From Gammaproteobacteria bacterium (lineage in GTDB: Bacteria; Pseudomonadota; Gammaproteobacteria; Ga0077536): a DNA stretch of 64,000 bases. How positions within the stretch are numbered: position 1 is the first letter of the stretch; the number at the start of each line of letters is the position of its first letter. Below the pieces are notes generated by a model, which was not told the origin of the DNA, made no database searches, and was given only the letters and a program-made list of their open reading frames with translations. The position numbers were made by a program, and so were the translations under genes. The stretch lies in assembly GCA_965278995.1 (NCBI GenBank), contig OZ257136.1, positions 2,874,497 to 2,938,496 of the forward strand, written 5' to 3'. Shown piece after piece: positions 21,408-64,000 of this stretch.

Positions 21408-21438
21408 GATGGAAGTCCGGTAGATAACCGGCCTGGCC

Positions 21439-46889: not shown

Positions 46890-47117
46890 TCAAACGGAGA
46901 TCAATCTGATATTTGCGCCACGGGGCGCCCATTTCACGACCATTAACGAATTAAAGAAGTTCATTCCTAAACTAACGAAACGCCGCTCGCCTTCGACGAA
47001 GGCGTCTTCCATTGTCAGGGCGTGGGGATCAATTAACACTCCGTCTCGTTTCGCGAGAGAAACCCCATGCTTCTGACGATTCGCTTCGTCCTTGGTCGGG
47101 TCATACTCGACGCTCAT
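46890..47117 (-). CDS. BrnT-like (DUF497/COG2929) ribonuclease toxin in a gene cassette
   Basis: MSVEYDPTKDEANRQKHGVSL...ERRFVSLG matches the BrnT family pattern. The start is internal to a longer ORF in the track. Confidence 0.55.
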   Translation of the reverse strand: MSVEYDPTKDEANRQKHGVSLAKRDGVLIDPHALTMEDAFVEGERRFVSLGMNFFNSLMVVKWAPRGANIRLISV

Positions 47118-47175
47118 TGAGTATGCACATTGTGCATATGGCGGAACAGAGGAGACGTTGAGAGGGTCAGTCTGA

Positions 47176-47244
47176 GGCCTAACGCGCCGATGATTGGCGG
47201 AGGAGTGCGCAGCACGAAGGCGTCCGCTCCATGGCTGGTTAGCC
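47176..47244. other. Integron attC site 2 (GGCCTAAC ... CGTCCGCTCCATGGCTGGTTAGC)
   Basis: It belongs to the same ~68-bp family as attC sites 3-5, with an imperfect internal dyad and unpaired bases. Confidence 0.7.
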
Positions 47245-47248
47245 ATCG

Positions 47249-48034
47249 CTACGGGAGTAGACCCAGGGATTGCAGACATGACCGACTGAGCTTCTCTCGC
47301 GTTGGACCCATTTCTGCATTCTTCATGTCCATGTTCAGGGCGAAGGGATAATTTATCCCACCGGAATTTACCCACCCGACCCACCAGCCGACACCTTCGT
47401 TCGGATAGTTCTGCCACCCAGACTTCGCCCAAAGGCCCCAGCCTTTGCCCTTGTCTTTGAGAAGGATTTCCTGGGTTTGAGTTTGCACCGTTTCGCTCAC
47501 CGGGAGACGATGAGCTACAAGCTTCGCAATGAAGCTGACCTGTTCGATTGCGCTGATCTGCAGTGGACCATCTAACCAGAATCGGTCTACTGCTTGGCCA
47601 ATCGTTTTATTCCCATAGTCGAAATACTCTAGCGCTTCGGCCATCCGGTTCAATCCGATTCGTCGGGCAAGCGTTTGGTATATCGCTACATTGGATAACA
47701 CGATTGCTTCGCGGAGGCTCATGTTCCGCTCCCATTCCTTGACTGGTTGCGGTTGCCCTCCGTATTCGAGAACCTCGTCAACGTCTTTGACGGCACCTAC
47801 GGTGAGTCCTATAAGCGTATTCGCGATCTTGAAGGTCGAGGCTGGGACGAACTGAGTGGTTGCGCGCTCTTGGTTGTAGCCAGTCATCTCTCCGGTTCGT
47901 GGGTCGAGGACAACAAAGGTGCCTGCTACGTTCGCTAGCCGAAACTGCTCGGCGAGATCGAGGTTCTCGGTCCACTGCGCCAAACACCGCAGCGGCACCA
48001 AGACCAACAAGAGAGCGGAAAGTGCTCTAATCAT
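47249..48034 (-). CDS. Class D (OXA-type) beta-lactamase gene cassette
   Basis: Motifs present: STFK, YGN, a KSG element, WWVGW and the omega-loop element QISAIEQVSF. A signal peptide is present. The stop lies 5 bp from attC site 2, and the start is 12 bp from the split attC site 3. Confidence 0.8.
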   Translation of the reverse strand: MIRALSALLLVLVPLRCLAQWTENLDLAEQFRLANVAGTFVVLDPRTGEMTGYNQERATTQFVPASTFKIANTLIGLTVGAVKDVDEVLEYGGQPQPVKEWERNMSLREAIVLSNVAIYQTLARRIGLNRMAEALEYFDYGNKTIGQAVDRFWLDGPLQISAIEQVSFIAKLVAHRLPVSETVQTQTQEILLKDKGKGWGLWAKSGWQNYPNEGVGWWVGWVNSGGINYPFALNMDMKNAEMGPTREKLSRSCLQSLGLLP

Positions 48035-48045
48035 TTTGATTGCGA

Positions 48046-48104
48046 TGCTTAACGTGCCGATGAGCGGCGTTGGAGTGCGAAGCACGGAAACGTCCGCTCG
48101 ATTG
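48046..48104. other. Integron attC site 3, left portion, interrupted by the IS insertion
   Basis: GCTTAACGTGCCGATGAGCGGCGTTGGAGTGCGAAGCACGGAAACGTCCGCTCGATTG matches the family, then diverges abruptly at about 48105. Confidence 0.65.
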
Positions 48105-49483
48105 ATGAAATGGACTCCTCCCGCACTTTTTGCGCCGGCATCAGTGTGCCAAAGTAGGGTTGTAACACGTCTACTTGCTCAGCTCAGGAGGAGTCCACCC
48201 ATGAAGTCTAAGATTATTGCTGTCGACCTGGCAAAGGATGTCTTCGAAGTCGCCGTCGCCGATCTCGATCACCACATCGTCGAGCGTCAGCGCTTGTCGC
48301 GCACGGCCTTCAGTCGCTTCATCTCGACACAACCGGCCGCGTTGGTGCTGGTCGAGTCGTGCGGCACCGCCCACTACTGGGCACGCCATGCCCAGGCCGC
48401 CGGACATCAGACCAAAATTATCCCGGCCCACTATGTCAAACCGTATCGCCGTCGCGGCAAGACCGACCGCGCTGACACCGAAGCCCTGCTTGAAGCCCAC
48501 CGTTGCCAAGGCATCAAGCCGGTCCCGCTGCGCTCCGTCGAGCAACAACAAATTCAACAACTCCACCGGGTGCGTGAGCAATGGAAGCGCACGCGCACCC
48601 AGCGTCTCAACGGACTGCGTGGGTTCTTACGTGAACTCGGCTTGGTTATTCCCGAAGGCGCCAAGCTCGCGCAACGGCGAGCTCATGCGTTCCTCAACGA
48701 CGACGCCATTCCGCCGCCCTTGAAGAGTGTCTTCACGCGCCTGCTCGAAGAAATCAAAACCCTCGAGAGCGACATCGCCGCCGTCGAACGACAGCTCAAG
48801 GCCCTGACCCAAGCCAATGCCGGCGTACAACGGTTACAGACCGTCGCCGGTGTCGGTCTGTTGACCAGTACCGCCATGGTCGCCGCCGCTGGCTCACCGC
48901 ATCATTTCCCCGACGGGCGTCATTTTGCCAGTTGGCTTGGCCTGACCCCACGCGAGTACAGCTCTGGTAATCAGCCGGTCCTCGGGCGGATCTCCAAGCA
49001 GGGCGACTGGGATCTGCGCATGCTGCTCACCCATGGCGCGCGCTCAGTGCTCACCAGGGCCAAGCAACTGCAACGCGTCGGAAAGACCCTGACCCGTCTG
49101 CAACAATGGGCCTGCACGCTCGAACGGCGGGTCGGTCATAACAAGGCGACCTGCGCCATCGCCAACAAGCTCGCTCGGATCTGTTGGGCCGTATGGAAAT
49201 CTGAAACCGACTTCGACGCTAACCGCGCCGCCGCTTAACCCCTCAACCCGTTTGCGTAGAGACTATCGCGTTCATGACATTTTGGTTGGACCAGTACCGA
49301 TGAAAGCCGATAACCAGCTTGCTCAGCCAAGAGCATTTCGATCGATTGGCACTCGGTGCGCGGATCTTCATGATGGCCCGGCCTCGACCAACGAGAGCCA
49401 CAGCGAGGCCGGATACACGACTGCAAACGACACCAACCGTCAGCAACGCACCTTCGTCTCTACTTGTGGGAGGAGTCCATACA
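48105..49483 (+). mobile_element. IS110-family insertion sequence of the attC-targeting IS1111 group (about 1.38 kb), inserted in attC site 3
   Basis: It carries a DEDD transposase ORF. Subterminal repeats CTACTTG-N-GGAGGAGTCCA lie near both ends (48171-48200 and 49457-49480). The flanks reconstitute an attC site. Confidence 0.65.
48201..49238 (+). CDS. IS110-family (DEDD) transposase
   Basis: The N-terminus MKSKIIAVDLAKDVFEVAV is present. The C-terminal Transposase_20-like region has VAGVGLLTSTAMVAAAG. An AGGAGG ribosome-binding site is present. Confidence 0.85.
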   Translation: MKSKIIAVDLAKDVFEVAVADLDHHIVERQRLSRTAFSRFISTQPAALVLVESCGTAHYWARHAQAAGHQTKIIPAHYVKPYRRRGKTDRADTEALLEAHRCQGIKPVPLRSVEQQQIQQLHRVREQWKRTRTQRLNGLRGFLRELGLVIPEGAKLAQRRAHAFLNDDAIPPPLKSVFTRLLEEIKTLESDIAAVERQLKALTQANAGVQRLQTVAGVGLLTSTAMVAAAGSPHHFPDGRHFASWLGLTPREYSSGNQPVLGRISKQGDWDLRMLLTHGARSVLTRAKQLQRVGKTLTRLQQWACTLERRVGHNKATCAIANKLARICWAVWKSETDFDANRAAA

Positions 49484-49510
49484 GGCTGGTTAGGCATCGC
49501 GTAGGTTAGC
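49484..49510. other. Integron attC site 3, right portion (GGCTGGTTAGG, with a second GTTAGCC copy)
   Basis: It matches the 3-prime ends of the other attC copies immediately after the IS right end. Confidence 0.5.
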
Positions 49511-49955
49511 CCCGGCGTACGGCCAAGAACGCCCCGGCCGACATTAAAACCAGGCCGACAAGTCTTTGTAAAGATAGCGTGTGCACCTGTGCGCCCAGTA
49601 GCCCAAATTGGTCTATGGCGGCCATTGAGATGAGCTGTCCGAGCAGGACAAATGCCACAGCATTGCCGACACCGAATTGTGGAGCTACCCAGGTAACGCT
49701 TAAAACGTAGAAGGCGACGAAGACACCCCCTAAATAGAAATAGAACGGGATTGATGCTTTGGGCGAAAGTCTCAGGCCACCTCCTACGGTGAACAGGAAA
49801 GCGAGCGAAACGCATAATGCCACCAGAAACAATACGGAGGCGGCGAAAGACGGGCTACCGTACGTAGAACCTAATTTGGAACTAAGCGCGGCCATAACAG
49901 GAATGCCTATACCCGTAGTAACCATAAGACAAGCAAAGAATAGTTGGTTTGCCAT
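49506..49955 (-). CDS. Small DMT-superfamily (EamA/DUF606-like) membrane protein cassette
   Basis: It is 149 aa with 4-5 transmembrane helices. Its stop lies within the attC core. Confidence 0.55.
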   Translation of the reverse strand: MANQLFFACLMVTTGIGIPVMAALSSKLGSTYGSPSFAASVLFLVALCVSLAFLFTVGGGLRLSPKASIPFYFYLGGVFVAFYVLSVTWVAPQFGVGNAVAFVLLGQLISMAAIDQFGLLGAQVHTLSLQRLVGLVLMSAGAFLAVRRG

Positions 49956-50080
49956 AGGTCGAACTCATCTAGTTATTCAAGGTGTAGGACGACAAGTTGA
50001 GGCGCGCGGACATTCAATGCAGCTCTTTGTAAATCTACTCGCGCCTTGAGAATGCGGCAACACCAACTATGCAGCGCGAT

Positions 50081-50150
50081 GCCTCAACGCGCCGATGAGC
50101 GGCGTTGGAGCGCGAAGCACGGAGGCGTCCGCTCGATTGGCTGGTTAGCT
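50081..50150. other. Integron attC site 4 (GCCTCAACGCGCCGATGAGCGGCGTTGGAGCGCGAAGCACGGAGGCGTCCGCTCGATTGGCTGGTTAGC)
   Basis: Family alignment. Confidence 0.7.
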
Positions 50151-50474
50151 GTCACTTCGTATTGCAACTTCGATATAGCTGCCGTTCGTGGCCGACGCAA
50201 TTGCGTCAACTACTGAGGCGATGGACGTTTGGATCCGCGGCCAGCTTGTCGTAGTTAACACGACGATCGAGATTTGGCGGGTATCGAGGTTCTGCTGGTA
50301 CTTCAGGTTCTGGTCTGTTGTTACCAACACATCGAATCCGTTCGCTTCGGCTTGACTCAAAAGGTCGCCATTCTGCAGAGAACCCCAGCCTCGCTCATAG
50401 GCCGTTTCAATTTCATGGGAACCGAGGTGCTTGCGAAGAGGAACTGGTGTTCCCTGATCAAACAGGATCCGCAC
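50145..50474 (-). CDS. DUF5615-type PIN-like putative toxin
   Basis: MRILFDQGTPVPL...DVLVTTDQNL matches the family. It is coupled to an upstream DUF433 partner. Confidence 0.5.
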   Translation of the reverse strand: MRILFDQGTPVPLRKHLGSHEIETAYERGWGSLQNGDLLSQAEANGFDVLVTTDQNLKYQQNLDTRQISIVVLTTTSWPRIQTSIASVVDAIASATNGSYIEVAIRSDS

Positions 50475-50693
50475 TCACGCGACTTCCAGGGATCGAGCTG
50501 CGTGTTCAAGGACTTTTCGAGCTTGGTCTAGGGTAACTCCGGGAAACCACTCCAGAAATTCTGAGATCTGGGCGCCGTCCTCAAGGTTTTCGAATAGCGC
50601 AGATACCGGAACCCGTGTGCCCCGAAACACCCACGCGCCGCTCACCATGTCTGGATCGCGATGGACAGCAGCGCATGTGGACCAATCAATCAT
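50475..50693 (-). CDS. DUF433 (COG2442) putative antitoxin
   Basis: GAWVFRGTRVPVSALFENLEDG is the DUF433 signature. Its stop overlaps the DUF5615 start. Confidence 0.5.
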   Translation of the reverse strand: MIDWSTCAAVHRDPDMVSGAWVFRGTRVPVSALFENLEDGAQISEFLEWFPGVTLDQARKVLEHAARSLEVA

Positions 50694-50733
50694 GAGTTGA
50701 TGCTACGCCAGGTCTGCACGGGGTTCAACGTGA

Positions 50734-50803
50734 CAGCTAACGTGCCGATGAGCGGCCTTGGAGCGCGAAGCGCGGAAACGTCCGCTCGATTGGCTGGTTA
50801 GAG
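50734..50803. other. Integron attC site 5 (AGCTAACGTGCCGATGAGCGGCCTTGGAGCGCGAAGCGCGGAAACGTCCGCTCGATTGGCTGGTTAGAG)
   Basis: Family alignment. The BrnA-like gene stop lies in its core. Confidence 0.7.
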
Positions 50804-51076
50804 CGAGGCTTCTTTGAACGCACGAAGCACCGCATTGATGCGAGTCTGATAGCCTGGACCTTGAGATCTAAACCACTCAAGAACATCCGCGTCTACGCGC
50901 AGCGCGATTGATGCCTTTGGCGGGATTGGCTTTAGACCCCTGCGGACTATACCGCCGACGATATGCTTGACCTTCGCCTCGGGATGCTCAGGAGATAGCT
51001 TAATGTCGCGGCCGCTTTGCGCACGTACCCGCGCCCAATCAGTTTTGGAGGTTTTCGAAGAGGATGCTTTCTTCAT
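50798..51076 (-). CDS. BrnA-like antitoxin, second copy
   Basis: GPGYQTRINAVLRAFKEA is present. It overlaps the upstream BrnT-like gene. Confidence 0.5.
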   Translation of the reverse strand: MKKASSSKTSKTDWARVRAQSGRDIKLSPEHPEAKVKHIVGGIVRRGLKPIPPKASIALRVDADVLEWFRSQGPGYQTRINAVLRAFKEASL

Positions 51077-51314
51077 TTCGGGTAGCCTTACGGGATGAGA
51101 TGACGTGGATTTCGGTTGAAGTCTCGGTATGAATTATTGATGTTGTTACCCCACCGAGGAAGCCAAGCGTTACAAAACGCTGCTCTCGGTACACAAAGCG
51201 ATTATCTTCGAAGGTAAACGTTGGCCCTTCAAAAACCCGCGGGGTGTCAACGAAATCAAAGCCATGTTCTTTAAGGTTAGTGCGGCGCTTTGGTTCGTCC
51301 CATGTGAATCGCAT
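51039..51314 (-). CDS. BrnT-like (DUF497) toxin, second copy
   Basis: MRFTWDEPKRRTNLKEHGFDF...QRFVTLG is present. Confidence 0.55.
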   Translation of the reverse strand: MRFTWDEPKRRTNLKEHGFDFVDTPRVFEGPTFTFEDNRFVYREQRFVTLGFLGGVTTSIIHTETSTEIHVISSRKATRNEESILFENLQN

Positions 51315-51365
51315 GCATCTAATGTATATACACTATGTAGATTCGTCAATCCACGACTGCGCCTC

Positions 51366-51452
51366 GCTCTAACATTCAGTAGCCATCATCCCAACCTTAT
51401 TACGCTCGTCAATCTGACGTTGAATTCCAGGTCGGAGTTAAGGCTACAGTCG
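51366..51452. other. Possible degenerate sixth attC site (CTCTAAC ... GGAGTTAAGG)
   Basis: It has an inverse-core-like TAAC and a core-like GTTAAG about 80 bp apart, with short internal inverted repeats. The call is weak. Confidence 0.25.
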
Positions 51453-52020
51453 AGTGCGAATCGGTGCGAGTGAGATGTTCAATTTTTACATCAGCAATTT
51501 GTAGTATGAGGTTGCCAGCGCCGCCAGTCATTGGCGGGAGTAGAACGCGATGATATACGTCAAACTGAAGTGATCGAAGCTACGTCCGGCCTTGCTGGAG
51601 CGCAGGTTGGCGTTCGTTGCCCGGCACGATTGTGATCGCGTATCCGGTGAATGGTTCGGAGCTACCAGGAGCTGGCTTTTTGGTTGCCTTCTATCGATCG
51701 TGTGGGTTCGGCTGTCCGAGTGCGTTAGTACCGCATTCGCACGGAGCGGGCTTACCTGTATTGGAACTGCGGCCGCGACTACGAACACCAGGAGGTGCCG
51801 CTTTACGGCATTTCAATGGCAGTGAACAGCGCCAGTACTATTATCCATATGACAGCACTGACCAGGAGGGGAGTTCTTCCGACACCCACCGCCATGCGCC
51901 ATTACTGCCGCACTGATGATCAGGAATATCGTTACGGCGAATAGAAACTTGATCACACTGTGATTGAGGATATGGTCGTGCAGGGTACGCAGAATCAAGC
52001 GTTGTATGCGCCGCACTATC

Positions 52021-52992
52021 TCATGTCCCGCCGTCGCTGAATTCAGGCTCCATCGGCACCACACAAGGTGCGGGCTGCTGATTGAACATCAGTCGCAGCA
52101 CGTCGGGGCGCGAATAATGGCCAACGGGGTCGGCCGCAGCTTTGGCAAACATGATAGCGCCCAAGTCGATGTCAGCGATGACGAGGCCTTCGACATCCGG
52201 CGCGAGTGGTGCGCACAAAGGGGCGCCATCCGGCCCGAACAGCCGTGAATGGCCACCGCCGACTCGCAACAGTTCACGCTTCGGCTGCGTATCGCATAGC
52301 AATTCGACTATCGCCGGCGATACCACGGCGCACGCGGCCAGCACGAAACATTGCCCTTCGGCAGCATAGATCTGGCTGGCAGCGACATTGAGTTCCGGGC
52401 CGAGCGCGTAAGCGGCGCCGACATACAGACTGAAGCTCGGCCAGCAGGCGATGTGAATTTGTTCGTGCTGCGCATACATCGCGTACTTGGTCAGCGGCTG
52501 CAGATGTTCCCAGCAGCACAATTGACCGATGCGCCCGAGCGGCGTGGCGCAGACTTTGAGATGGCTGCCATCGCTCTCGCCGAACAGCGTCCGTTCGACA
52601 TGTGTAGGCTTCAGCTTGCGTCGACGGATAATCAATTCGCCGTCCGCGCCATACAGCCACTGCCCCATGTACAGACTCCCGCCATCGCGTTCAGCGACGC
52701 CGACCGAGACCGTCATGCCGTTGCGCCTCGCTGCAGCGCCGAGTGCGAGGTCGTGCCGACTGCCCGCTACGATCGAATTGGCGTGATAACGCCCGACCAG
52801 CGGCATCGTCCAGGCCGGTGCATCCAGCCACAGAAAGAACGGGTAGCCTGGTATCCACGTTTCCGGAAATGCGAGCAGTTCGACACCGGCCCGCCCAGCT
52901 TCGTCGATCAGTGCGATGGTCTTCTCGACACTTGCTTCAAGATCGAGATACGCCGGCGCTGCCTGCACTGCGGCGACCTTGATGGTGCTCAT
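52021..52992 (-). CDS. Nitrilase / carbon-nitrogen hydrolase family
   Basis: The catalytic motifs FPETWIPGY and GQLCCWEH give the Glu-Lys-Cys triad context. Confidence 0.85.
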   Translation of the reverse strand: MSTIKVAAVQAAPAYLDLEASVEKTIALIDEAGRAGVELLAFPETWIPGYPFFLWLDAPAWTMPLVGRYHANSIVAGSRHDLALGAAARRNGMTVSVGVAERDGGSLYMGQWLYGADGELIIRRRKLKPTHVERTLFGESDGSHLKVCATPLGRIGQLCCWEHLQPLTKYAMYAQHEQIHIACWPSFSLYVGAAYALGPELNVAASQIYAAEGQCFVLAACAVVSPAIVELLCDTQPKRELLRVGGGHSRLFGPDGAPLCAPLAPDVEGLVIADIDLGAIMFAKAAADPVGHYSRPDVLRLMFNQQPAPCVVPMEPEFSDGGT

Positions 52993-53026: not shown

Positions 53027-53821
53027 TCAACCGCACTGTCCGGCGCAGAATGTATCGAGTACCGGATCGGATTGCATGCGCATCACGGCCTGGGAATAGA
53101 TGGGTATGCCGAAACGATAGTGGCCCGCAGGCAGCCGATCAGGCAGTTCCGGTGCGCAGGCTGCACCGAAGGACGCGGCCGGTTTACCGACAGAAGCGAA
53201 AGTCGTGATGATGCGATTGACGAACGGCACCACGAGTTCGTAGCAGATACCGACATGAACCTTGATCAGATTGGCATCCTGTACCGATTGCTGAGAAGTC
53301 GGATCGGTCGCCGAACTGCGATACATGAGGTTGTCGTTGGGGATACGCGTGGTACCGGCGACAGTGACGCCGTGCTGTCCGAGAAAAGATTCCTCACGCG
53401 GGTTGATCAGCAGAATGCGTGCGTAGCCGTCGCTCAACATATCGCGGACGCGCTGCCGCGCGCATTTAACATCATCGAGATCCGGTTCGCCGTCGTGGCC
53501 GGTAATGTCGTCGAGGCTCGCAGGCCCGGTGCAGACTTCGCCGGCCATGGTGACGTAAGGCGTCGTATAGAGCGGCGCGAGCGAACGCGCAAACGCGAGC
53601 TCCATGGCCCACATGCGTGCATTGTTCAGTGCACCGGCGCGTGCAGTTTCGAATGCGGCGTAGTTCAGCGTCGTCTTCGCCTGGTAGATCAGCCCGAACT
53701 GAACCGCCCCAAGGATCAGCATCAACAGTACCGGCATGACGTAGATAAACTCGACCATCGCCTGCCCACCAGCATGACCCCGTGCCTGGGCGCCGCCCCG
53801 ATTGCGGGCAACGCTAGCCAT
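53027..53821 (-). CDS. TadE/TadG-like pilus assembly protein
   Basis: The N-terminus has AMVEFIYVMPVLLMLILGAVQFG (TadE-like domain). The true start may be internal. Confidence 0.55.
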   Translation of the reverse strand: MASVARNRGGAQARGHAGGQAMVEFIYVMPVLLMLILGAVQFGLIYQAKTTLNYAAFETARAGALNNARMWAMELAFARSLAPLYTTPYVTMAGEVCTGPASLDDITGHDGEPDLDDVKCARQRVRDMLSDGYARILLINPREESFLGQHGVTVAGTTRIPNDNLMYRSSATDPTSQQSVQDANLIKVHVGICYELVVPFVNRIITTFASVGKPAASFGAACAPELPDRLPAGHYRFGIPIYSQAVMRMQSDPVLDTFCAGQCG

Positions 53822-54431
53822 CTTCCGGGACTACCGCTGGCACAGCAGCCGGCGCGGATGCTTTGGGCACGGCGGGTACCGGCGCCACCGCAGGACCAGC
53901 GACCTGCCCTTTGCCATCGTCGTCGAGGATTTCCAGGATGGCGGCATAAGCATCCGCAGCTTGGCGACGCGTCGGATCGTCACCAGTCACGTGCACTTCC
54001 ATCTTGTGAAAGCTGTTCGCTGCCTGGCGCAATTGCACGATGCCCATGTTGAACCAGGCTTTCGCAAGCTCGGGTTCGCGCACCAGCGCTTCGCGGTAGG
54101 AAGCGACCGCGAGATCGGGACGGTCGGTACGCGCGTAGATATTACCGAGCTTGAACCAGTGATCGGCTTCCTGCGGGATCTCGCGGACCAGCGCGACATA
54201 ATGCGTTTCTGCCGCCGCCCAATCGCCCGCCGTATAGCTCTGCTGGGCGCGTTCGCGGATGACCTTGATATCGACTGCCGTGTCGTCCACCACGGGATCC
54301 GACGCGTTTCGCTGCGGCGCGTTCTGACAGGCGGCCAGCAGCAGCGTAAGTATGGCTGCGGCAACTCGCGCGCTTACGCTCTGCACCACGCGCCTGCGCT
54401 CGTCCGGGCCATGCAGATTCTCGCTGGCCAT
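53814..54431 (-). CDS. TPR-repeat lipoprotein (TadD-like)
   Basis: It has a lipobox LLLAACQ and TPR-like helices (WFKLGNIYARTDRPDLAVASYREAL). Confidence 0.5.
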   Translation of the reverse strand: MASENLHGPDERRRVVQSVSARVAAAILTLLLAACQNAPQRNASDPVVDDTAVDIKVIRERAQQSYTAGDWAAAETHYVALVREIPQEADHWFKLGNIYARTDRPDLAVASYREALVREPELAKAWFNMGIVQLRQAANSFHKMEVHVTGDDPTRRQAADAYAAILEILDDDGKGQVAGPAVAPVPAVPKASAPAAVPAVVPEDG

Positions 54432-54434
54432 ACT

Positions 54435-55322
54435 TCAGCTCTGGGCCAGGAACTTCATCACTATCGGGAACGCGAGCACGATGAAGGTGACAGGGAAAAT
54501 GAACAGGATGAGCGGGCCGACGAGCTTGATCGGCGCTTCCATGGCCAGTTTTTCGGCGCGCTGGAAACGTTCGTTGCGCCGCTGCTCGGCTTGAACGCGG
54601 AGCACGGTGGCTAGACTGGCGCCCATCTTTTCCGCCTGCACGACCGCGCTGACGAAGCTGGTGACTTCAGTGATATCGAGCCTGTCGGCCATGCGGCGCA
54701 ATGCGTCGGCGCGCGTCAGTCCAGAACGCAGGTCGCGCAGCACGATGGCGAATTCGTTCCGCAACGGTCCGGGCGGGGCCTTTTCCATCGACTGCGCCAG
54801 CGCACCCGACAGGTTGAGGCCCGCTTCGACGCACATCGTGATGAAATCAAGGTAGATAGGCATGCTGCGGATGACAGCAAGTTCGCGGCGTTTGCGCGTG
54901 TCCGCCAGCCATACGTTGGGAAACAGAAATCCGAGCAGCGGCGCAAGCAGGATGGCAAGCGGGAACGACTTGCCCATCACCATCAGACAGACCCAGATGA
55001 TCGGCGGCAAAATGAGCGCCATGAAGAATTGCAGCGCAACGAATTGTTCGGCGGTCAGCAGATAACTGACGCCGGTACGTTGCAGCCGCTTCTCGGTATG
55101 TTCCATGTAATCGTAGGGCAGGAACGGGCAGACGAAATTGGCGATGATGCGGATGAACGGCCAGATCAGTTTCAGCAGCGGCGGCAGCGGATCCATGTAG
55201 GACCGATCTTCCTCCTCGACCAGTGTATTGATCCACGACACCAGCAACCAGAAACAGACTGCCGACAGCGCCCACCCGCTGATACTGAGCCAGGGCAGGG
55301 TTCCATCGAGTGATTGATCCAT
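54435..55322 (-). CDS. tadC: Type II secretion system F-domain pilus platform protein (TadC-like)
   Basis: It has GspF-like helices and a position within the tad-like locus. Confidence 0.7.
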   Translation of the reverse strand: MDQSLDGTLPWLSISGWALSAVCFWLLVSWINTLVEEEDRSYMDPLPPLLKLIWPFIRIIANFVCPFLPYDYMEHTEKRLQRTGVSYLLTAEQFVALQFFMALILPPIIWVCLMVMGKSFPLAILLAPLLGFLFPNVWLADTRKRRELAVIRSMPIYLDFITMCVEAGLNLSGALAQSMEKAPPGPLRNEFAIVLRDLRSGLTRADALRRMADRLDITEVTSFVSAVVQAEKMGASLATVLRVQAEQRRNERFQRAEKLAMEAPIKLVGPLILFIFPVTFIVLAFPIVMKFLAQS

Positions 55323-55334
55323 CGTGAAGCCTGC

Positions 55335-56215
55335 TCAGACGTCAATCGAAGTGATTTTCGTGATCATCAGGTAGCCGAGTATTTCCATCACCACGATGAT
55401 GGACAGTACAGCCCAGCCGATACCCGTCGTCCACAGTTTGCTCATCGCTTCGGGTTCGAGGAAATTGAGCAGTACACCGAGCAGCACGGGCAACCCGGTC
55501 ATGACGATACCCTGCAGCTTGCCCTGCGCGGTTAAACTGCGGATCTTGCCTTCCATCGTCGACTTGCGACGCAATGTATCGGCCAGCGATTCGACCGTCT
55601 CGGCCAGGTTACCGCCGACTTCGCGGTTGATGCGGAGTGCTGTCGTCAGCATTCGGAAATCCTGCATCGGGATACGCTTTTCCATGTTCTTCAGCGAGAC
55701 ATCGAATTCGACGCCGAGGCGCTGTTCCTGAGTCAGGATCTCGAACTCCTGACTAATCGGCACCGGCTGCTCATTGACCAGATTGTCGAGCGCTATCGAC
55801 AGACTGGCGCCGGCCCTCAAGGCACCTGAGACCATCGCCAGCGCATCGGGTAACTGGGCTTCGATGCGGGCCAGCCGCTTGTTACGCATCGAGCGATAGA
55901 CATACGTTGGCAGCACCAGAATCAGCACGAACACAGCGAGCGTCGAGACCAGGTCGCCGAGCAGTATCCACACCAGCAGCGGAAGCACGCCGAGCGCAAT
56001 CAGGTTCATGCGGAACAAGCGGTTGGGATCGACGAACATGAACATGTCAGCCATGTTCGACGAGGCCGAAGCGGTGAAATCTTCGCGATACTTGACCATC
56101 TTGGACTGCGCTTTCACGCCGAGAATGATCCAGGCGGTGGTGGCGCACAGAAACATCGCGGCCAGCGCCGCGGGAAACGCGAACGTCGCGACCAGTCTGT
56201 AGAAACTCTCAGCCA

Positions 56216-56216
<1 letters not shown>
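55335..56216 (-). CDS. tadB: Type II secretion system F-domain pilus platform protein (TadB-like)
   Basis: It has a GspF-like domain and is coupled to the cpaF stop. Confidence 0.7.
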
Positions 56217-57961
<1,745 letters not shown>

Positions 57962-57973
57962 ACTGAATCCGCC

Positions 57974-59512
57974 TCAATCAAGCAACTTGAATGCATTACC
58001 GCGCATCGATTCGACGAATTCGCCGAGCTGCTTCTGCTCACGCTGGACGGCATCGACGTTCTCCTGATGTGCGGCGTCGTAGACCTGCGGCGTGACGAAT
58101 ATCACGAGATCGGTCTTGGAATCGCGAAACGCCCGCGACTTGAACAGGTGGCCGATGATCGGGATCGCGCTCAACCCTTTTAGTCCAGTCGTGTCGCGGC
58201 CGAGTTCGCGGTCGACCAGCCCCGACATGACCAATGTCTCGCCGGACTGGATCAGGATGTCGGCGTTCGTACGGCGGGTCAGGAAGCCAGGCGTATTGCC
58301 GACTGCGACGGACTGATCGACGGCGCTGATCTCGGTCTCGACCTTGGCCCGAATGTTGTCCTGCTTGTCGACCTCGGGCTTGATGTTGAGCAGGATACCG
58401 AACTGCTTGAACTCGATGGCAGCGCTGGTCGGCGTGACAATCTCGATCGGCACTTCGCCGCCGGCGAGGAAGCTCGCCTCACCGCCGCTCCGGGCGACCA
58501 GGCGCGGTTCGGCCAGGATCAGGGCATCGCCGGAACTGACCGCCAGATTGATCCGCGACGTGATTTCGGTGGCGATACCGAAATAGCCGAAGCTGGTGTC
58601 GGTTACTGCCGGATCGAGCACGGACAGCGAGTCCGGCGCATTGGCCCCGCCCAGCACGGTCACACCGTTGGTCCGCGAGCCACCGAAACCGGTTTCCGAT
58701 GACAGCGCCGCTGCCGGTCCGGCAAAACTGTTGCTCCAGTTGATGCCGAGATTGTCTGCCGCGCTTTTGTTGAATTCAGTGATCTTGATATGCATCAGGA
58801 CCATCTTGTCGTCGGGCAGATCGACGATGTCCTTACGGGTCAAATCCATCACTTCCTGATAGGCGCCCATGATCGTCGTGATGTTGTCGGCATAGGTGTT
58901 ATCGATAGTGCCAGTCAGCACGATACGGCTGCCGACAAGACGCACTTCAATGCCCTGGATATGCTGGACGAGCTGCTGGACCTCTGAAAGCTTCGTCGAC
59001 AATGACAGATCGAGAATTTCCGCATAGCCCGCTTTGACCTGCGCGACCAGCGCGCTGTAGCGTCCGTCGTACTGACCGGAAACGACTATCTTGTCACCGA
59101 CCACTGCGAGATCGATGCCGGGCACATGGCCAAGCAGTTTCTGCACCTGAGCGAATTTCTGCTGCAGTACCGCGCTGTTGACGGCCAGCGCATAGTCGGT
59201 CGGCTCGACGGTGAACTCGAGTTCACTCTCCTGACCGTTCTTCAACCATAGATGCAATTCGGTGACACCCGGTGCCTCGCCGAAAACCAGCAGCTGGCCG
59301 TTTTTCAGCAGCGATGTACTGATGACGGCGGCATTGCCGACAGCAACCCGATCGACATCGCCAGGTTGCAGGATGCGGATCTCGCCGACTTTCAAATTGG
59401 CCGCCAGGGCGTTCGCCCCGCACACCAGCAATATCGTTGCCCAGAGTATGGTCCGCAGCAGCGCGTTTCGCGTGCGATGACGCAAGTTCAGAGTATCCCT
59501 GGTGACCGCCAT
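57974..59512 (-). CDS. cpaC: Secretin (CpaC/RcpA family) with N-terminal BON-like repeats
   Basis: The secretin C-domain has AEPRLVARSGGEASFLAGGEVPI and GLSAIPIIGHLFKS. There is a signal peptide. Confidence 0.8.
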   Translation of the reverse strand: MAVTRDTLNLRHRTRNALLRTILWATILLVCGANALAANLKVGEIRILQPGDVDRVAVGNAAVISTSLLKNGQLLVFGEAPGVTELHLWLKNGQESELEFTVEPTDYALAVNSAVLQQKFAQVQKLLGHVPGIDLAVVGDKIVVSGQYDGRYSALVAQVKAGYAEILDLSLSTKLSEVQQLVQHIQGIEVRLVGSRIVLTGTIDNTYADNITTIMGAYQEVMDLTRKDIVDLPDDKMVLMHIKITEFNKSAADNLGINWSNSFAGPAAALSSETGFGGSRTNGVTVLGGANAPDSLSVLDPAVTDTSFGYFGIATEITSRINLAVSSGDALILAEPRLVARSGGEASFLAGGEVPIEIVTPTSAAIEFKQFGILLNIKPEVDKQDNIRAKVETEISAVDQSVAVGNTPGFLTRRTNADILIQSGETLVMSGLVDRELGRDTTGLKGLSAIPIIGHLFKSRAFRDSKTDLVIFVTPQVYDAAHQENVDAVQREQKQLGEFVESMRGNAFKLLD

Positions 59513-59547
59513 GTACTGATCCCCTCGCGTGCCGTGTTGTTTGTTGT

Positions 59548-59874
59548 TCATTGCAGTATCGGCAGACGGCCAACTTTGGCCGCACCATCCGCGCTGTTCC
59601 CGCCGGTAATCATCTCGATTGACGGTCCGGCCCGTACCCGCGGTGCCGGCGCAGTGCCGTCCGTCGGTGTGATGATGGCACCGCCGCTCGCAGACTCAGT
59701 GCCCGTGTCGGTGGCCGGCGACTGCGGCAGTTCCGCCGGGCTGGCCGCCGGTGCTTCATCGACTTTTCCGGCCGCCCCTGCGGACAACGCCATCGACCAG
59801 ACGCAGCCAAGCACAGCCCAGCGACACAGCGTCGATATCCGCCGCCGTGATCGATGAATTGCCATCGACTGCAT
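59548..59874 (-). CDS. Small secreted Pro/Ala-rich hypothetical protein between the cpaB-like and cpaC genes
   Basis: It is an ORF with a signal-peptide-like N-terminus; the call is weak. Confidence 0.3.
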   Translation of the reverse strand: MQSMAIHRSRRRISTLCRWAVLGCVWSMALSAGAAGKVDEAPAASPAELPQSPATDTGTESASGGAIITPTDGTAPAPRVRAGPSIEMITGGNSADGAAKVGRLPILQ

Positions 59875-59876
59875 CT

Positions 59877-61826
59877 TCAGTCGCTCGTCTTCAACGTCGT
59901 CGACTTGGCAACGCCATCGGTTGGCGAACCGCCGATGATGAGGTCAATCTTGCGCGCGCCGCCACCTATCGGCGTGCTAGCGGCGACGCTTGCAACCTGC
60001 GCTGCCGTCAGCGTGTGACCACTGCTGTCGACGACATTGCCGGCGGCATCGACTTTCAGTCCGGCCGAGGCGAGCTGTGCTTCACTCAGTACACCGTTCT
60101 TGGTCATGACCAGCGTTGCCGGGTTGACCACATTGCCGGCTTCGTCGACGACTTCACCATTGGCGTTCAAGGTCAAGCCCGCCGCCGCGAGCTGCTCCGC
60201 GTTGATCACTTTGCCGCTGGCATCGGTGACCAGAGTGGTGGGGTCGACGACCTTACCGCTGGCATCGACCAGTTCGCCTTTTTCGTTCATCGTCAGCCCG
60301 GCAGCCGCCAGCTGCGCGGGTGTCAGCAGTTCTCCGTTGGCAGTGACGACCAGCTTGTCGGGGTCGACGACATTGCCGGCTGCATCGACTATCTCGCCCT
60401 TGTCGTTGACGGTGAGGCCCGCTGCAGCGAGCTGTTCAGCCGTCAACAATCGGCCGTCGGCCGTCTTGATGAGCTTCGCCGTGTCGATGACCCTGCCGCT
60501 GGCATCGACGACTTCGCCGCGTTCGTTCACGCTCAATCCCGCCGCAGCCAGTTGCTGGCGAGTGACGATGTCGCCGTTTGCCGTCACGATGACATCTTCG
60601 GCCGAGACGATGTTGCCGTCCTTGTCGACGATTTGTCCGCTGGCATTGACGGTAAGGCCGGCTTTGGCCAGTTGTGCGCGATCGAGCACGCGACCATCGG
60701 CGGCGATGACGAGATTGGCCGGGTCGACAACCTTGCCATCCTTGTCGACAAGTTGCCCTTTGTCGTTGACCGTGAGGCCGGCTTTGGCCAGCTGCTCGCG
60801 GCTCATGATGCGATTGCCGTCGGCGTCGACGAGATTGCCGGCCTGGTCGACGCCGCTCGCAACGGCGACCCGGGTGCGGCGTTCGCCCTCGGCCTGGGCC
60901 ATGGTGAACGCATTACTGAAAAGATCCTGCGCAGACAGCGTCGAAAAGTCAGACAAGCCTTCGTCATTGCGATTGCGCAATAGTGCCAGCAAGTCGCCTT
61001 TGTCGAGTGCTGCGGTAACGAGTGCAGCCTCGCGCGGGCTGACGTCGAGTGTGATGGTGTTGTAGTTGCGTTCGGCACGCGGCTGCGGATAGTTCAGCGC
61101 ATCGAGTTCCTCGCGGTAAGGGTCACGCCCGGTGGCCAGCACACGCACACTCTGAAGCACCGGCAGAATGACATCCTTCGGCAGGGCATTCGCGACGAGC
61201 TGCTGGATCTCGGTATCGCCGGTATTGGCCCCGCGCGCCGCATCGAGCAGTGCACGTGGAATGGCATCACGTAGCTGGCTCGGGATCGCATCGACGAGAT
61301 CGGCGGTGATGAAGCCGGCCGAGAAGCCGGAGAAACCTGAGGGAATATTGACGAACAGATCGATGCGATTGCCGGGACGAATGAAGCCGGCGACGGAATT
61401 GATGTCATCGACCTGGACTGTCATCGCGCGTCGCCCGACCGGCACCGTATCGGAGAAATCGACCGGGAACCCGGTATCGAGATAGCTCTTCAGTATCGGT
61501 TTGCCCGCGCTGACATCAGCCTCGATGACCCGGCCGAGGTACTTTTCGAAATCGCCGGCAGGAACTGCATCGTTGGAGACGAATCCAGCCGGGATCTTGC
61601 GCTGAGACAGGACTTCGCGGCGCAACACGCTGCCTTTCGGGAGGTCGGTGCCGGCAACCAGTACGGTGACCTGCTTGCGGTCGGCACCGGCATATTTTTC
61701 GATCAACGCCGCTTTTTCGCTCTTCAAATAGACATACGAGAGCGCGGCCGCAACCAGCCCGAAAACGATAGCGCCAATCAGTAGCGGAATACCCAGTACG
61801 CTGCTGTTGTCTCGCGGCTCGGCCAT
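59877..61826 (-). CDS. cpaB: CpaB/RcpC-like pilus assembly protein (SAF domain) fused to about seven C-terminal ~40-aa tandem repeats
   Basis: The N-terminus has a transmembrane helix plus a CpaB-like region (RKQVTVLVAGTDLPKGSVL). The C-terminus has repeats of the form AEQLAAAGLTVNDKGEIVDAAGNVVDPDKLVVTANGELLT. Confidence 0.75.
   Translation of the reverse strand: MAEPRDNSSVLGIPLLIGAIVFGLVAAALSYVYLKSEKAALIEKYAGADRKQVTVLVAGTDLPKGSVLRREVLSQRKIPAGFVSNDAVPAGDFEKYLGRVIEADVSAGKPILKSYLDTGFPVDFSDTVPVGRRAMTVQVDDINSVAGFIRPGNRIDLFVNIPSGFSGFSAGFITADLVDAIPSQLRDAIPRALLDAARGANTGDTEIQQLVANALPKDVILPVLQSVRVLATGRDPYREELDALNYPQPRAERNYNTITLDVSPREAALVTAALDKGDLLALLRNRNDEGLSDFSTLSAQDLFSNAFTMAQAEGERRTRVAVASGVDQAGNLVDADGNRIMSREQLAKAGLTVNDKGQLVDKDGKVVDPANLVIAADGRVLDRAQLAKAGLTVNASGQIVDKDGNIVSAEDVIVTANGDIVTRQQLAAAGLSVNERGEVVDASGRVIDTAKLIKTADGRLLTAEQLAAAGLTVNDKGEIVDAAGNVVDPDKLVVTANGELLTPAQLAAAGLTMNEKGELVDASGKVVDPTTLVTDASGKVINAEQLAAAGLTLNANGEVVDEAGNVVNPATLVMTKNGVLSEAQLASAGLKVDAAGNVVDSSGHTLTAAQVASVAASTPIGGGARKIDLIIGGSPTDGVAKSTTLKTSD
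59990..60850. repeat. Imperfect 120-bp tandem repeat (about 7 units) inside the cpaB-like gene
   Basis: The motifs GGGTCGACGAC and GCCGCCAGCTG recur with a 120-bp period (e.g. 60121, 60241, 60361, 60481, 60601, 60721). Confidence 0.7.
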
Positions 61827-61914
61827 GCGTGATGCCCCCTGTCTAGCTGCATTTGTCTTTATTCATCATGGCGGTTATTCACACCGCCGGCGGCTCGTGC
61901 CGCACTATCCCTAT

Positions 61915-62313
61915 TCAGAATGGCGAGATTGCGTCCTGCGCCATCTGTGCGGCGATGTCCCCAAGATCTTCGAAACCGCCGAGCAATGAATCGATATCGC
62001 TGAATGCACTTTGCGCTGAAGTCAGCGGACTCAGCGCAGACGTCACCGCTTCCTGTACCGGGTCGACCGTCAGTCGCGCGAGAGTCTCCTCGTCGACTTC
62101 CGGATCGAGCGCGACATCGTTGATGTATTCGCGCAGTTCGGGCCCGGTATCGAAATCAGGCAGCGGCGACATCGAGAGCGAGTAGGAATAGCTGCGGTAA
62201 TTGTTCTTCAGGACGTCGGCCAGGGCCGCGATGACATCGCCACCCGGACCGAGCAGCGTCATCAGCCCGAAAGCGAGAATGACGGTGTACTCGACCATGG
62301 CCTGGCCGCGCAT
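61915..62313 (-). CDS. TadE-like/pilin-like protein
   Basis: The N-terminus AMVEYTVILAFGLMTLLG is TadE-like. Confidence 0.45.
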   Translation of the reverse strand: MRGQAMVEYTVILAFGLMTLLGPGGDVIAALADVLKNNYRSYSYSLSMSPLPDFDTGPELREYINDVALDPEVDEETLARLTVDPVQEAVTSALSPLTSAQSAFSDIDSLLGGFEDLGDIAAQMAQDAISPF

Positions 62314-62363
62314 GTTGCGCGCTCGATTGCTGTCAGCTGTAGCTCGTGTGGCCGTCACTTTGA

Positions 62364-63083
62364 TCACAGCAGGTCGTGTTCGATGGAGTTTACCACTATC
62401 TGCGAGCCACCACGATCCATCGATTGGATGGTGATGATGACCTGCTCGCGACCACGCGTAAAACTCAACGCGTGCAACTTCCCGTGGCCCATCGCCTGAT
62501 CGATATCTTTACGCCAGGCGGCATAGTGATTGCGATAGAACGTCACGTTGCTGTCGATCGAATTCGCATTGCTGAGCATCGCGGTGCTGGCCGACTTGCC
62601 CGGATCTTCACTCAGGACATTCGATTCGACAGTGGTATCACCCATCGATGGTGGTACCGGCGGTGTGGCCGGAGGCTCGCCCGGTTCAGGTAATCGGCCG
62701 AGCGCAAGATAACCGAAGCTGCCGCTACCTTTCGCAGGCTGCACCTGCACGGTCATCACGTAAGCGTCTTCGACACGCGTCAGCAGATGCCAGGGCGCAA
62801 TCGCGTCAGGTTCATAAGCGACACCGGGCGCACCGGGCACCGGCGGGTCTTTCCAGAGATCCTGATAGAACTGCACGACGTCATCGACGGAATCCTCGGT
62901 CACGAAACCGCGCACTGCCATCTGCCGGCCGAGGATGGTCATCGAATCGGAGATCTGACTCACAGTCGCGCCGTCCGGTGCCGGAAATTCAGGCGGACGT
63001 GCCTCGCTGCCGCCAGCAAAACAGCTTGCCAGCAGACTGAGAAACACGCCGGCGCGGCGACCACGTCGACGGCGTAACGGCAT
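62364..63083 (-). CDS. Hypothetical lipoprotein (lipobox LLASCFAG)
   Basis: It is an ORF with a signal peptide and a lipobox; the function is not assignable. Confidence 0.4.
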   Translation of the reverse strand: MPLRRRRGRRAGVFLSLLASCFAGGSEARPPEFPAPDGATVSQISDSMTILGRQMAVRGFVTEDSVDDVVQFYQDLWKDPPVPGAPGVAYEPDAIAPWHLLTRVEDAYVMTVQVQPAKGSGSFGYLALGRLPEPGEPPATPPVPPSMGDTTVESNVLSEDPGKSASTAMLSNANSIDSNVTFYRNHYAAWRKDIDQAMGHGKLHALSFTRGREQVIITIQSMDRGGSQIVVNSIEHDLL

Positions 63084-63088
63084 TGCGG

Positions 63089-64000
63089 TCACAGCGTACA
63101 CGGCGAATGCGACATCGGCGGGTCGAGTTCCTGCACGGCTTCTTCCCACACGCAGCGTCCGCTGTCATCGCAGACATGGTTGCCGAGGCGCGCTTCGGGA
63201 TCTTCGCCTTCGACCGAGAGCCGGTCGGGATGCACGACGTCGCCGTCGACATATCCCAGCCACAGATGACCTTCCGGTGCCGCCAGCGGCGATTTGACCA
63301 GCGGATCGGGTGGACCAGGCGGATCGCAGCGCGAAAGTTCCGGCGCGATGAAGCTGATCAGATCCCAGATCTCGCTCAAACCCGGCAGATTGAGCAGTTC
63401 GTTGACCAGGGTCGACGGCGTCGTGCCACCGACCTGCAAATAGGTATGCGCGGTGCCGCCAGCGTTCCAGCCGTCGGCGACGACGCCGGCCTTGGCGCCG
63501 AAAGCGAGCAGACTCTCGGTGGTATCGGGGCGCGTTGCCAGTGCATCGCGCAGCACCACGCCACCTTTGTAGACCGTTGCCATGGCGTCGAAATCGACGT
63601 GACTGTAGCCGTCGGTGTTCATCGCGCTGAACCCGGCACTGCCGGCGAACGGGTCGCCCGCGCCAGGCAGCGTCGAGCCGTCTGACTGGTTATTGCGCGA
63701 GAACGAATCGAGCAGATTGATGATGGCGCCGACTGCGTCGAAACCGATCTGCACGATATCGACAATCGTATTCAACCACGACCCGACATCGACGCCGAAA
63801 ATGGTGATGGTCGGCGTGTCGTCGTCGGTTTCGACGACCGTCATATCGAGCGAACCATCGAAAAACGGCAGACCACGATGATCGACCCAGCTTGCCCGCG
63901 GAACGTAAGGCGTGCCGGCATCCGTGGCCAGCAACACCGGGATCGCCGACGGCGAGCCGCTGCCGTCGTCGACTTCATTGCCGACATCGGACATCAAACG
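63089..64000 (-). CDS. Hypothetical protein, partial (it continues beyond the window end)
   Basis: The ORF runs off the window; it is Gly/Asp-rich with no recognised domain. Confidence 0.35.
   Translation of the reverse strand, partial: RLMSDVGNEVDDGSGSPSAIPVLLATDAGTPYVPRASWVDHRGLPFFDGSLDMTVVETDDDTPTITIFGVDVGSWLNTIVDIVQIGFDAVGAIINLLDSFSRNNQSDGSTLPGAGDPFAGSAGFSAMNTDGYSHVDFDAMATVYKGGVVLRDALATRPDTTESLLAFGAKAGVVADGWNAGGTAHTYLQVGGTTPSTLVNELLNLPGLSEIWDLISFIAPELSRCDPPGPPDPLVKSPLAAPEGHLWLGYVDGDVVHPDRLSVEGEDPEARLGNHVCDDSGRCVWEEAVQELDPPMSHSPCTL

Follow-up and report, generated by a model that had tools for sequence, protein, structure and literature searches.

A Tad/Flp pilus operon without TadZ whose CpaF-type ATPase carries a degenerate FHA fold

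How does a Tad/Flp pilus machine manage without TadZ? This question is raised by an operon in a 64,000-nt stretch of DNA from a Gammaproteobacteria bacterium (assembly GCA_965278995.1, contig OZ257136.1, positions 2,874,497 to 2,938,496), referred to here in its whole length as the window. TadZ/CpaE counts as a hallmark of the Tad pilus and is regarded as the hub that gives the machine its place in the cell. Based on the open reading frame (ORF) listing and on Pfam and NCBIfam matches, a Tad/Flp-type operon occupies the minus strand at 53027-64000, where it is cut by the window end, and its CpaF/TadA ATPase (56216-57961) carries a forkhead-associated (FHA) domain. An earlier reading of the sequence alone (the original prediction) proposed that control or localisation of this ATPase by a Ser/Thr kinase replaces TadZ. 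The best explanation, with a probability of roughly 60%, is a TadZ-less Tad subtype in which the FHA fold would do the job of TadZ by phosphorylation-independent docking.

The ATPase indeed combines the two expected domains. PF00498 (FHA) scores 29.8 bits at residues 25-87, against a gathering threshold (GA) of 20.7 (29.8-32.7 bits across scans), and PF00437 (T2SSE) scores 216 bits; among the NCBIfam models, the TadA family TIGR03819 fits best, with 342 bits, under its equivalog cut-off of 373. An AlphaFold2 (AF2) model of residues 1-110 is all-beta, with a confidence score (pLDDT) above 90 for residues 1-97. The top matches of this model in a Foldseek search of the Protein Data Bank (PDB) are all FHA domains, with TM scores of 0.75-0.84 (Ki67, FhaA, GarA/OdhI, KIF13A/B and YscD/PscD of the type III secretion system, T3SS). 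In the full-length model, the FHA fold (residues 1-97, 57671-57961, minus strand), in which key residues are non-canonical, is followed by disorder at about residues 99-142, by helices at 143-240 and by an N-terminal domain (NTD) and the ATPase domain. The linker with its poly-Asp patch (residues 98-142, 57536-57670, minus strand) has a pLDDT of 30-35, and the CpaF/TadA core (residues 143-581, 56216-57535, minus strand), matched by PF00437, consists of the helical bundle and an alpha/beta core of NTD and ATPase domain. Relative to canonical CpaF/TadA, the N-terminus is 140 residues longer. A search with the FHA domain of 1.84 billion representatives gave 237 matches, mostly N-terminal gene fragments, in which the domain nearly always begins at residue 1. 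Just past the acidic linker, Thr135 is invariant within the family. The poly-Asp patch itself is confined to the closest family, and the idea that it acts as an intramolecular phosphomimetic ligand was dropped on that ground.

This architecture is already described and is not new. PMC12019362 defines a class III CpaF with the order FHA-IDR-3HB-NTD-CAD (FHA, disordered region, three-helix bundle, NTD and ATPase domain), found mostly in betaproteobacteria, e.g. Achromobacter xylosoxidans E3HIW0. The window ATPase shows the same domain order, and the betaproteobacterial spread matches that of the clade described below. That text, as far as available, sorts CpaFs by architecture, without mention of ‘CpaE’ and without an assessment of the phosphothreonine pocket; here, the domain is degenerate and excludes TadZ. 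In the literature searched, including the available parts of PMC12019362, PMC8460266 and the type IV filament (TFF) survey PMC6668835, no statement was found that FHA-CpaF systems generally lack TadZ, nor that the FHA domain of proteobacterial CpaF is degenerate.

The window was scanned in six frames with home-made hidden Markov models (HMMs) for TadZ, A24 peptidase, DUF192, Flp and FHA, and for kinase and Walker-A motifs. The TadZ HMM, built from 28 ORFs directly upstream of cpaF, finds the TadZ of Burkholderia at 4e-106, and its matches to the fused TadZ domains range from 1e-33 to 1e-57. With it, no TadZ-like protein was detected in the 64 kb; HMM and motif likewise detected no A24 prepilin peptidase (TadV/CpaA) in the window. 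The same scan gave no DUF192 protein, no kinase motif and a single FHA domain, and Pfam found no Pkinase, PP2C, Peptidase_A24 or ParA/MinD-like protein in about 40 further window ORFs. The original prediction was thus right that TadZ and a prepilin peptidase are missing from the window; the partner Ser/Thr kinase and phosphatase to be expected under its kinase model are missing from the 64 kb as well, by Pfam and by the six-frame motif scan.

The operon does not end at 63083, as had been supposed, but continues through a truncated tadE-like gene and leaves the window at 64000. What lies beyond was read from relatives with 70-81% identical proteins (loci L001-L004, L087 and L088; loci are denoted by L numbers). 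There, the tadE-like gene is preceded by a tadG-like gene of 600-700 amino acids (aa) and this by an flp gene of 80-93 aa (GQGMTEYIIIVALIA), which opens the operon about 3 kb past the point where the window ends and which scores only 18 bits with Pfam Flp_Fap, below the GA of 32. Further upstream follow a divergent DUF192 gene, an M61-like peptidase gene and then housekeeping genes. A tadZ gene immediately beyond the window had been named as the observation that would overturn the original prediction; as far as these relatives can stand in for the sequence itself, none is there, since no ParA-like, tadZ or A24/tadV gene occurs in the 10 kb upstream of the window-end point in any readable relative, including three close ones whose operons start with flp, and ParA-type Pfam families are absent from the relatives' loci. 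No small flp gene was found in the window; that it and tadG are missing there comes from the cut at the window edge, not from the make-up of the system. The region amounts to the distal three quarters of an operon for a Tad/Flp (type IVc) pilus.

To place the locus among others, the FHA-CpaF alignment was scanned against one genome per GTDB species, and the best 80 of more than 597 matches were taken as loci. With the relatives, a Moraxella bovis plasmid locus and the canonical Burkholderia locus (L006) added, 83 CpaF genes were usable. In 42 loci, CpaF has an N-terminal FHA domain and no TadZ-like gene lies within ±10 kb (E<1e-20). In another 30 the N-terminus is short, and tadZ is found directly upstream of cpaF in 30/30. 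Ten loci have a ParA-like TadZ domain fused within CpaF, and one, with cpaF at a contig edge, is undecidable. Among the 53 long N-termini, Pfam assigned FHA to 41 and CbiA/AAA_31/ParA to 10, both confirmed by home-made HMMs. FHA-CpaF and TadZ, separate or fused, therefore never occur together: TadZ is present in 0/42 FHA loci versus 40/40 other evaluable loci, and none of the ten TadZ-CpaF fusions sampled also has an FHA domain. A rough neighbour-joining tree built from the ATPase cores splits the FHA types into at least 4-5 lineages (beta/gamma, Myxococcota, Halofilum and two or three groups of the Planctomycetota-Verrucomicrobiota-Chlamydiota, PVC). Weak matches of the TadZ HMM near L009, L010 and L011 turned out to be response regulators or a hybrid kinase and were set aside. 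The fusion loci, mainly from Bdellovibrionota (L036-L038, L042, L049, L059, L063, L066, L076 and L078), carry a ParA-like domain but lack a receiver-like one.

FHA instead of TadZ is thus supported as an evolutionary pattern. The replacement proposed by the original prediction holds in so far as the FHA domain sits where TadZ otherwise sits, with mutual exclusion in the 83 loci; its kinase-dependent form finds no support. That the domain also substitutes for TadZ in function is a further step, for which we see about even odds. A rival explanation, to which only a small probability is given, is that TadZ is encoded elsewhere or is dispensable, and that the FHA domain is an autoregulatory module for ATPase activity or for a switch between extension and retraction. 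According to PMC12019362, class I CpaFs work without an N-terminal extension, and the IDR of class II is proposed to modulate direction. Moreover, the linker, 45 residues long, disordered and partly poly-Asp, could bend back onto the hexamer, and the searches covered ±10 kb around each cpaF. However, conservation of the poly-Asp patch stops at the closest family, and tadZ is either directly upstream of cpaF or fused to it and never beside FHA-CpaF. Because this three-way partition of one position is perfect, unrelated modules are hard to reconcile with it.

Next, the state of the phosphothreonine pocket bears on how the domain would act. For this, 42 FHA domains were aligned to a single HMM and the key columns tabulated. 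The window protein has Lys28, Trp39, Ala42, His45 and Ala64; the positions that contact phosphothreonine are therefore Lys28/Ala42/Ala64 versus canonical Arg/Ser/Asn, while the structural His (His45) is kept. By this residue comparison, the domain is not a canonical phosphothreonine-binding FHA domain. Its 118 close homologues all have Lys28 (118/118), and position 42 is Ala in 111 and Ser in 6. The degeneration extends across the clade. The Arg (GR) column holds Lys in 17, Arg in 6 and Ser in 2 of the 25 beta/gamma loci, versus Arg in 14 of the 17 loci from Myxococcota, PVC and Halofilum. The Ser (SxxH) column holds Ala in 14, Gly in 8, Gln in 1 and Ser in 2 of the beta/gamma loci, versus Ser in 17/17 of the other group. 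The Asn (NG) column retains Asn in 3/25 and has lost it in 22/25, versus Asn in 13 of the 17. A Trp three residues before the Ser position is found in 25/25 beta/gamma loci and in none of the 17. Given the canonical residues in Myxococcota and PVC, the ancestral FHA-CpaF domain was probably a phosphothreonine reader. The solved protein closest in sequence to the window domain is the FHA domain of KIF13B, a phosphorylation-independent binder, and the degenerate FHA domains of T3SS SctD/YscD/PscD and of kinesin-3 are phosphorylation-independent too.

Since the FHA domain has lost the residues for reading phosphothreonine, kinase control is unlikely for the beta/gamma clade. The model in question, that of the original prediction, is that the FHA domain reads phosphothreonine set by a Hanks-type kinase so that signalling by kinase and phosphatase, and not TadZ, would recruit or activate the ATPase, in parallel to Fha1/PpkA of the type VI secretion system. 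The fold is genuinely FHA, Lys28 is a conservative replacement of Arg, Thr135 after the acidic linker is invariant in the family, and the FHA-CpaFs of Myxococcota and PVC keep Arg/Ser/Asn. Hanks-type Ser/Thr kinase genes also adjoin flp in two loci (L010:288-1796(-) and L014:1659-2999(+)) and lie near it in a third (L088:5751-6674(-)). Nevertheless, the Ser is replaced by Ala, Gly or Gln in 23/25 beta/gamma loci. A kinase motif within 10 kb occurs in only 2/43 FHA-type loci (L010 and L014, both confirmed as Pkinase), and no kinase or PP2C was found in the loci L001-L005 and L087. The L088 kinase stands among phage-like DUF551 genes between two flp copies and looks like an insertion. Kinases near flp in three loci are too rare for general kinase control. 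We therefore hold this model for improbable, and the claim of kinase-dependent control was not borne out. As a side observation, one of the three flp-adjacent kinases has a cyclic nucleotide (cNMP)-binding domain and lies directly upstream of flp on the same strand.

A TadZ-less machine with a phosphorylation-independent FHA dock thus remains the preferred reading. The FHA fold, held on a flexible linker, would attach the motor to some cytoplasmic feature, whether of the machine or of the cell, and would in this way take over from TadZ the recruitment, placement or gating of the ATPase at the inner-membrane platform. The docking would be a protein-protein contact without phosphorylation; judging from the residues, this is fairly probable, given the loss of Ser and Asn, the usual change of Arg to Lys and the invariant Trp beside the old pocket. 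The products of most subtype-specific genes carry prepilin motifs or lipoprotein signals and are exported or anchored in the membrane, and DUF192 is present in 21/33 TadZ-type loci too; this leaves the FHA domain as the one new cytoplasmic element that goes along with the loss of TadZ.

Several points weigh against this reading. Lys28 can still contact a phosphate, and there are the kinases near flp in L010, L014 and L088. The FHA domain of CpaF could instead tune the direction or activity of the ATPase, as proposed for the Caulobacter CpaF IDR (PMC12019362). The sample is biased to relatives of the query, with classical proteobacterial Tad loci nearly absent, and the survey extended over ±10 kb around each cpaF, so that a tadZ, tadV or kinase gene may lie elsewhere in a genome. 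The detectors for TadZ and A24 are home-made HMMs. Lastly, the Fisher p of 2e-24 for the exclusion of FHA and TadZ is uncorrected for phylogeny and overstates the case, the loci being related and the sample query-biased.

Compared with known systems, the locus resembles the canonical ones in most parts. The Aggregatibacter tad, Caulobacter cpa and Burkholderia L006 loci share with it RcpC/CpaB, RcpA/CpaC, TadA/CpaF, TadB, TadC, the TPR lipoprotein and TadE pseudopilins, as well as the Flp pilin by way of the relatives. However, the canonical loci have tadZ/cpaE directly upstream of tadA (L006, 6686-7894) and usually tadV/cpaA, and the window locus has neither. In-locus A24 peptidases are missing from all 25/25 beta/gamma FHA-type loci. 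The prepilin peptidase would have to come from elsewhere in the genome and might be of the PilD type, by analogy with Bdellovibrio, in which PilD processes Flp.

In Bdellovibrio bacteriovorus, a ParA/MinD-like TadZ is fused to the motor (TadZA) and binds the polar hub RomR, with no in-locus TadV (bioRxiv 10.64898/2026.07.08.737194). The likeness is an accessory module joined to the motor N-terminus by a linker and the lack of an in-locus TadV; the difference is that the module is TadZ there and FHA here. Myxococcus xanthus offers another FHA-bearing motor: according to PMC8460266, the KilF ATPase has an N-terminal FHA domain and is the single ATPase of Kil, which kills prey on contact. Both systems fuse FHA to a CpaF-type ATPase, and the sampled Myxococcaceae loci (L023, L032 and L033) are also without TadZ. 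Kil, as described there, is split over two clusters and has several extra FHA proteins, an in-locus prepilin peptidase, no TadG/TadD and a short secretin without N0. In contrast, the window locus is a single operon with one FHA domain in 64 kb, no peptidase, a TPR lipoprotein, a tadG-like gene (in relatives) and a secretin of normal size with the pilus N-terminal domain; its FHA domain is degenerate, whereas the myxococcal ones keep the canonical Arg/Ser/Asn. The window locus is not of the Kil type.

An FHA fold without phosphothreonine consensus on a secretion machine is known from EssC and from T3SS SctD/YscD/PscD (PDB 4a0e, 4d9v and 6uid), although ATPase families and partners differ from those of CpaF. 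According to PMC11217815, the EssC FHA domains of the type VIIb secretion system (T7SSb) have no phosphothreonine site and bind EssB independently of phosphorylation, whereas in other T7SS subtypes the site is retained, and kinases and phosphatases are encoded alongside.

The eleven listed genes of the operon, one of them truncated, are closely packed, with gaps of mostly a few to ~12 nt, the widest ~90 nt, and several start/stop overlaps. All lie on the minus strand, and they include the parts by which a Tad/Flp system is recognised: the CpaF/TadA ATPase, TadB and TadC, an RcpA/CpaC secretin, RcpC/CpaB and TadE/TadF-type pseudopilins. Starting at the window end, the 3' part (303 codons) of the tadE-like pseudopilin gene (63089->64000) runs on past the edge. 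It is 100% identical to the C-terminal 302 residues of protein P0121 (400 aa), whose N-terminus bears the prepilin-type motif GQAMSEFVIAATFVLL (GQAMSEF), and P0121-like genes are found at the equivalent position in 20 FHA-type loci. Next comes a lipoprotein-like protein, p261 (62364-63083, ORF to 63149), with a signal peptide and an LLASC lipobox (MPLRRRR...LLASC). Its start codon is probably the ATG at 63083; it has no Pfam or NCBIfam match, and homologues stand at the equivalent position in 19 FHA-type loci. The gene order and domains of the original prediction were otherwise as described, but the gene it called ‘TadE-like’ is p261, and it skipped the gene that follows, for a 150-aa prepilin-like protein (minor pilin or pseudopilin, 61915-62367). 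This protein has a G/QAMVEY motif, then a hydrophobic helix, and matches the home-made Flp HMM weakly (E=2e-4); the position of its gene is conserved in 16 loci.

The CpaB/RcpC homologue (59877-61826) scores 125 bits with TIGR03177 (cut-off 71) and contains SAF, RcpC and five DUF3659 domains. Its C-terminal half (59877-60850) carries about seven 40-aa repeats (DUF3659), with 120-bp DNA repeats at 60108-60841; this extension, presumably periplasmic, differs in length between close relatives (488-649 aa), and most other loci of the subtype do not have it. The small ORF after it (59548-59874, 108 aa) begins like a signal peptide and has no family match in Pfam or NCBIfam. It is conserved only in the closest relatives, with homologues of 75-95 aa at the equivalent position in L001-L003 and L087. 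The RcpA/CpaC-type secretin (57974-59551, 525 aa) is matched by PF13629 (T2SS-T3SS_pil_N, 51.7 bits) and PF00263 (Secretin, 121 bits). Past the ATPase follow TadB-like (55335-56216) and TadC-like (54435-55322) platform proteins, each with a single PF00482 (T2SSF) domain of 57 and 71 bits, respectively. The TPR lipoprotein (53814-54431), a TadD-like candidate pilotin, has TPR_16, TPR_2 and TPR_14 matches and an LLAAC lipobox, and stands at the equivalent position in 16 loci. The last gene of the conserved cluster (53027-53821) encodes a TadE-family pseudopilin of 264 aa, with PF07811 at 56.8 bits and a G/QAMVEF motif. Prepilin-type motifs occur in only two window proteins, the 264-aa and the 150-aa ones.

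A scan for terminators and promoters 3' of the last gene, at the 53027 end, gave nothing above chance. The gene after the operon encodes a cytosolic nitrilase (52021-52992). Past it, the stretch 46890-52000 is lower in GC (0.535 at 50-52 kb) and, apart from short ORFs, holds just a transposase of the IS110 family (47919-49238) and a BrnT-like toxin (46890-47432), which suggests a mobile or recombination-prone border. At 8 kb from the operon, a PAS-GGDEF-EAL protein is encoded (42781-44859, minus strand), a possible cyclic di-GMP input to surface behaviour, in a neighbourhood that relatives do not share.

In the beta/gamma clade (~25 loci), gene order is fixed: flp, tadG-like, tadE-like, lipoprotein, prepilin-like, cpaB, cpaC, FHA-cpaF, tadB, tadC, DUF192, TPR lipoprotein, tadE. 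The window locus agrees with this order apart from DUF192, which is missing between tadC and the TPR gene and which its closest relatives carry upstream of flp. Members of the clade are Acidithiobacillus ferrianus, A. sulfurivorans, Piscinibacter, Thauera, Hydrogenophaga, Polaromonas, Variovorax, Quisquiliibacterium, Oleiphilus and the Moraxella bovis plasmid, as well as many uncultured Gammaproteobacteria. DUF192 (COG1430) is small, has no signal peptide and appears cytoplasmic from its sequence; it is present in 44/87 loci (21/43 of FHA type and 21/33 of TadZ type), for example at L003:6964-7326(-), L087:6942-7304(-) and L005:15511-15834, and is not anti-correlated with A24 peptidases. As a substitute for TadV it was rejected, because it co-occurs with A24 peptidases in 7 TadZ-type loci and the locus copies are without a signal peptide.

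Insertion sequences break the operon in close relatives (L002:4635-5882, L004:16837-17706 and L088:12854-13720). A Transposase_mut element sits in the 150-aa gene and an IS1595 element in the cpaF linker, where it parts FHA from the ATPase; a second IS1595 is found in a close-relative locus without cpaB through tadE. The subtype may often be decaying. Two-component systems flank some loci, with a PilS-like kinase and an NtrC-type regulator, or a hybrid histidine kinase and a LuxR-type regulator (L011:7960-10937; downstream in L009 and L010), and are likely transcriptional controllers. None adjoins the window locus.

What the machine does may be hinted at by the genes beside related loci. In five of them, the last tad gene is immediately followed, on its own strand, by a toxin gene with a Sec signal. 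Piscinibacter (L017, 14756-20317) and Thauera (L019, 5807-11362) have DUF6531-RHS-Tle1-like proteins of ~1850 aa, and the Moraxella bovis plasmid (L005) has an RHS gene downstream (16868-21418) and an RHS-Tle1-like gene upstream (672-6026(-)). Hydrogenophaga (L022, 14602-16089) has PT-HINT with an RNase-A-like CdiA-CT, and Acidithiobacillus ferrianus (L015, 12524-13804) a pesticin-like lysozyme. Moraxella, Piscinibacter and Thauera have homologous RHS-Tle1-like proteins (E ~1e-90; the upstream copy of L005 matches the L017 toxin at 2e-93). Small ORFs downstream of the toxin genes could encode immunity proteins. Large downstream ORFs in L018, L040 and L043 have no Pfam match, and those of L040 and L043 were discarded as genes, as they look like spurious high-GC frames. 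In the literature searched, no link was found between Rhs or polymorphic toxins and the Tad systems of these bacteria.

These neighbours leave room for a rival explanation in which the machine is a Kil-like exporter or one like the type II secretion system (T2SS), a short pilus pushing Sec-exported toxins through the secretin with the FHA domain as the trigger. It is in line with the contact killing by the FHA-bearing Kil, as told in PMC8460266, and no RHS homologue (E<1e-11) was found in the 33 TadZ-type loci. However, the window has no toxin, its next gene being the nitrilase, and the closest relatives have housekeeping genes at that place. Toxins are present in only 5 of ~20 loci with downstream coverage, two of which (L017 and L019) are from sister taxa. 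Furthermore, toxin islands are often found beside surface-structure loci by chance, and a normal Flp pilin and several minor pilins are kept. As an account of this locus, we regard it as the least probable of the alternatives. A related proposal, put forward as a hypothesis on the subtype and not as a property of the window locus, is unlikely as well, if slightly less so: the TadZ-less FHA-CpaF subtype of beta- and gammaproteobacteria would be a route by which polymorphic toxins that depend on Sec (Rhs-Tle1-like phospholipases, PT-HINT nucleases and pesticin-like lysozymes) are exported or used in contact killing. In it, the Tad filament would work as the T2SS pseudopilus or Kil does, and the degenerate FHA domain would couple firing to a cytoplasmic partner instead of the polar placement by TadZ; the window locus would be toxin-less or have its toxin in trans.

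The locus itself is an ordinary member of a large, uncharacterised subtype, to which a modest new comparative rule is added. The recurrent toxin genes by related loci suggest a function beyond adhesion. As the pocket is degenerate in the beta/gamma clade and canonical in Myxococcota and PVC, the annotation ‘FHA’ should not be taken to mean ‘kinase-regulated’, and this split mirrors the situation of EssC in T7SS. Detection models that require tadZ would under-call FHA-CpaF systems. A large syntenic family does without TadZ within ±10 kb of cpaF and always has the FHA fold on its motor instead, and the three-way partition into separate TadZ, fused TadZ and FHA is a testable rule for how Tad motors are recruited.

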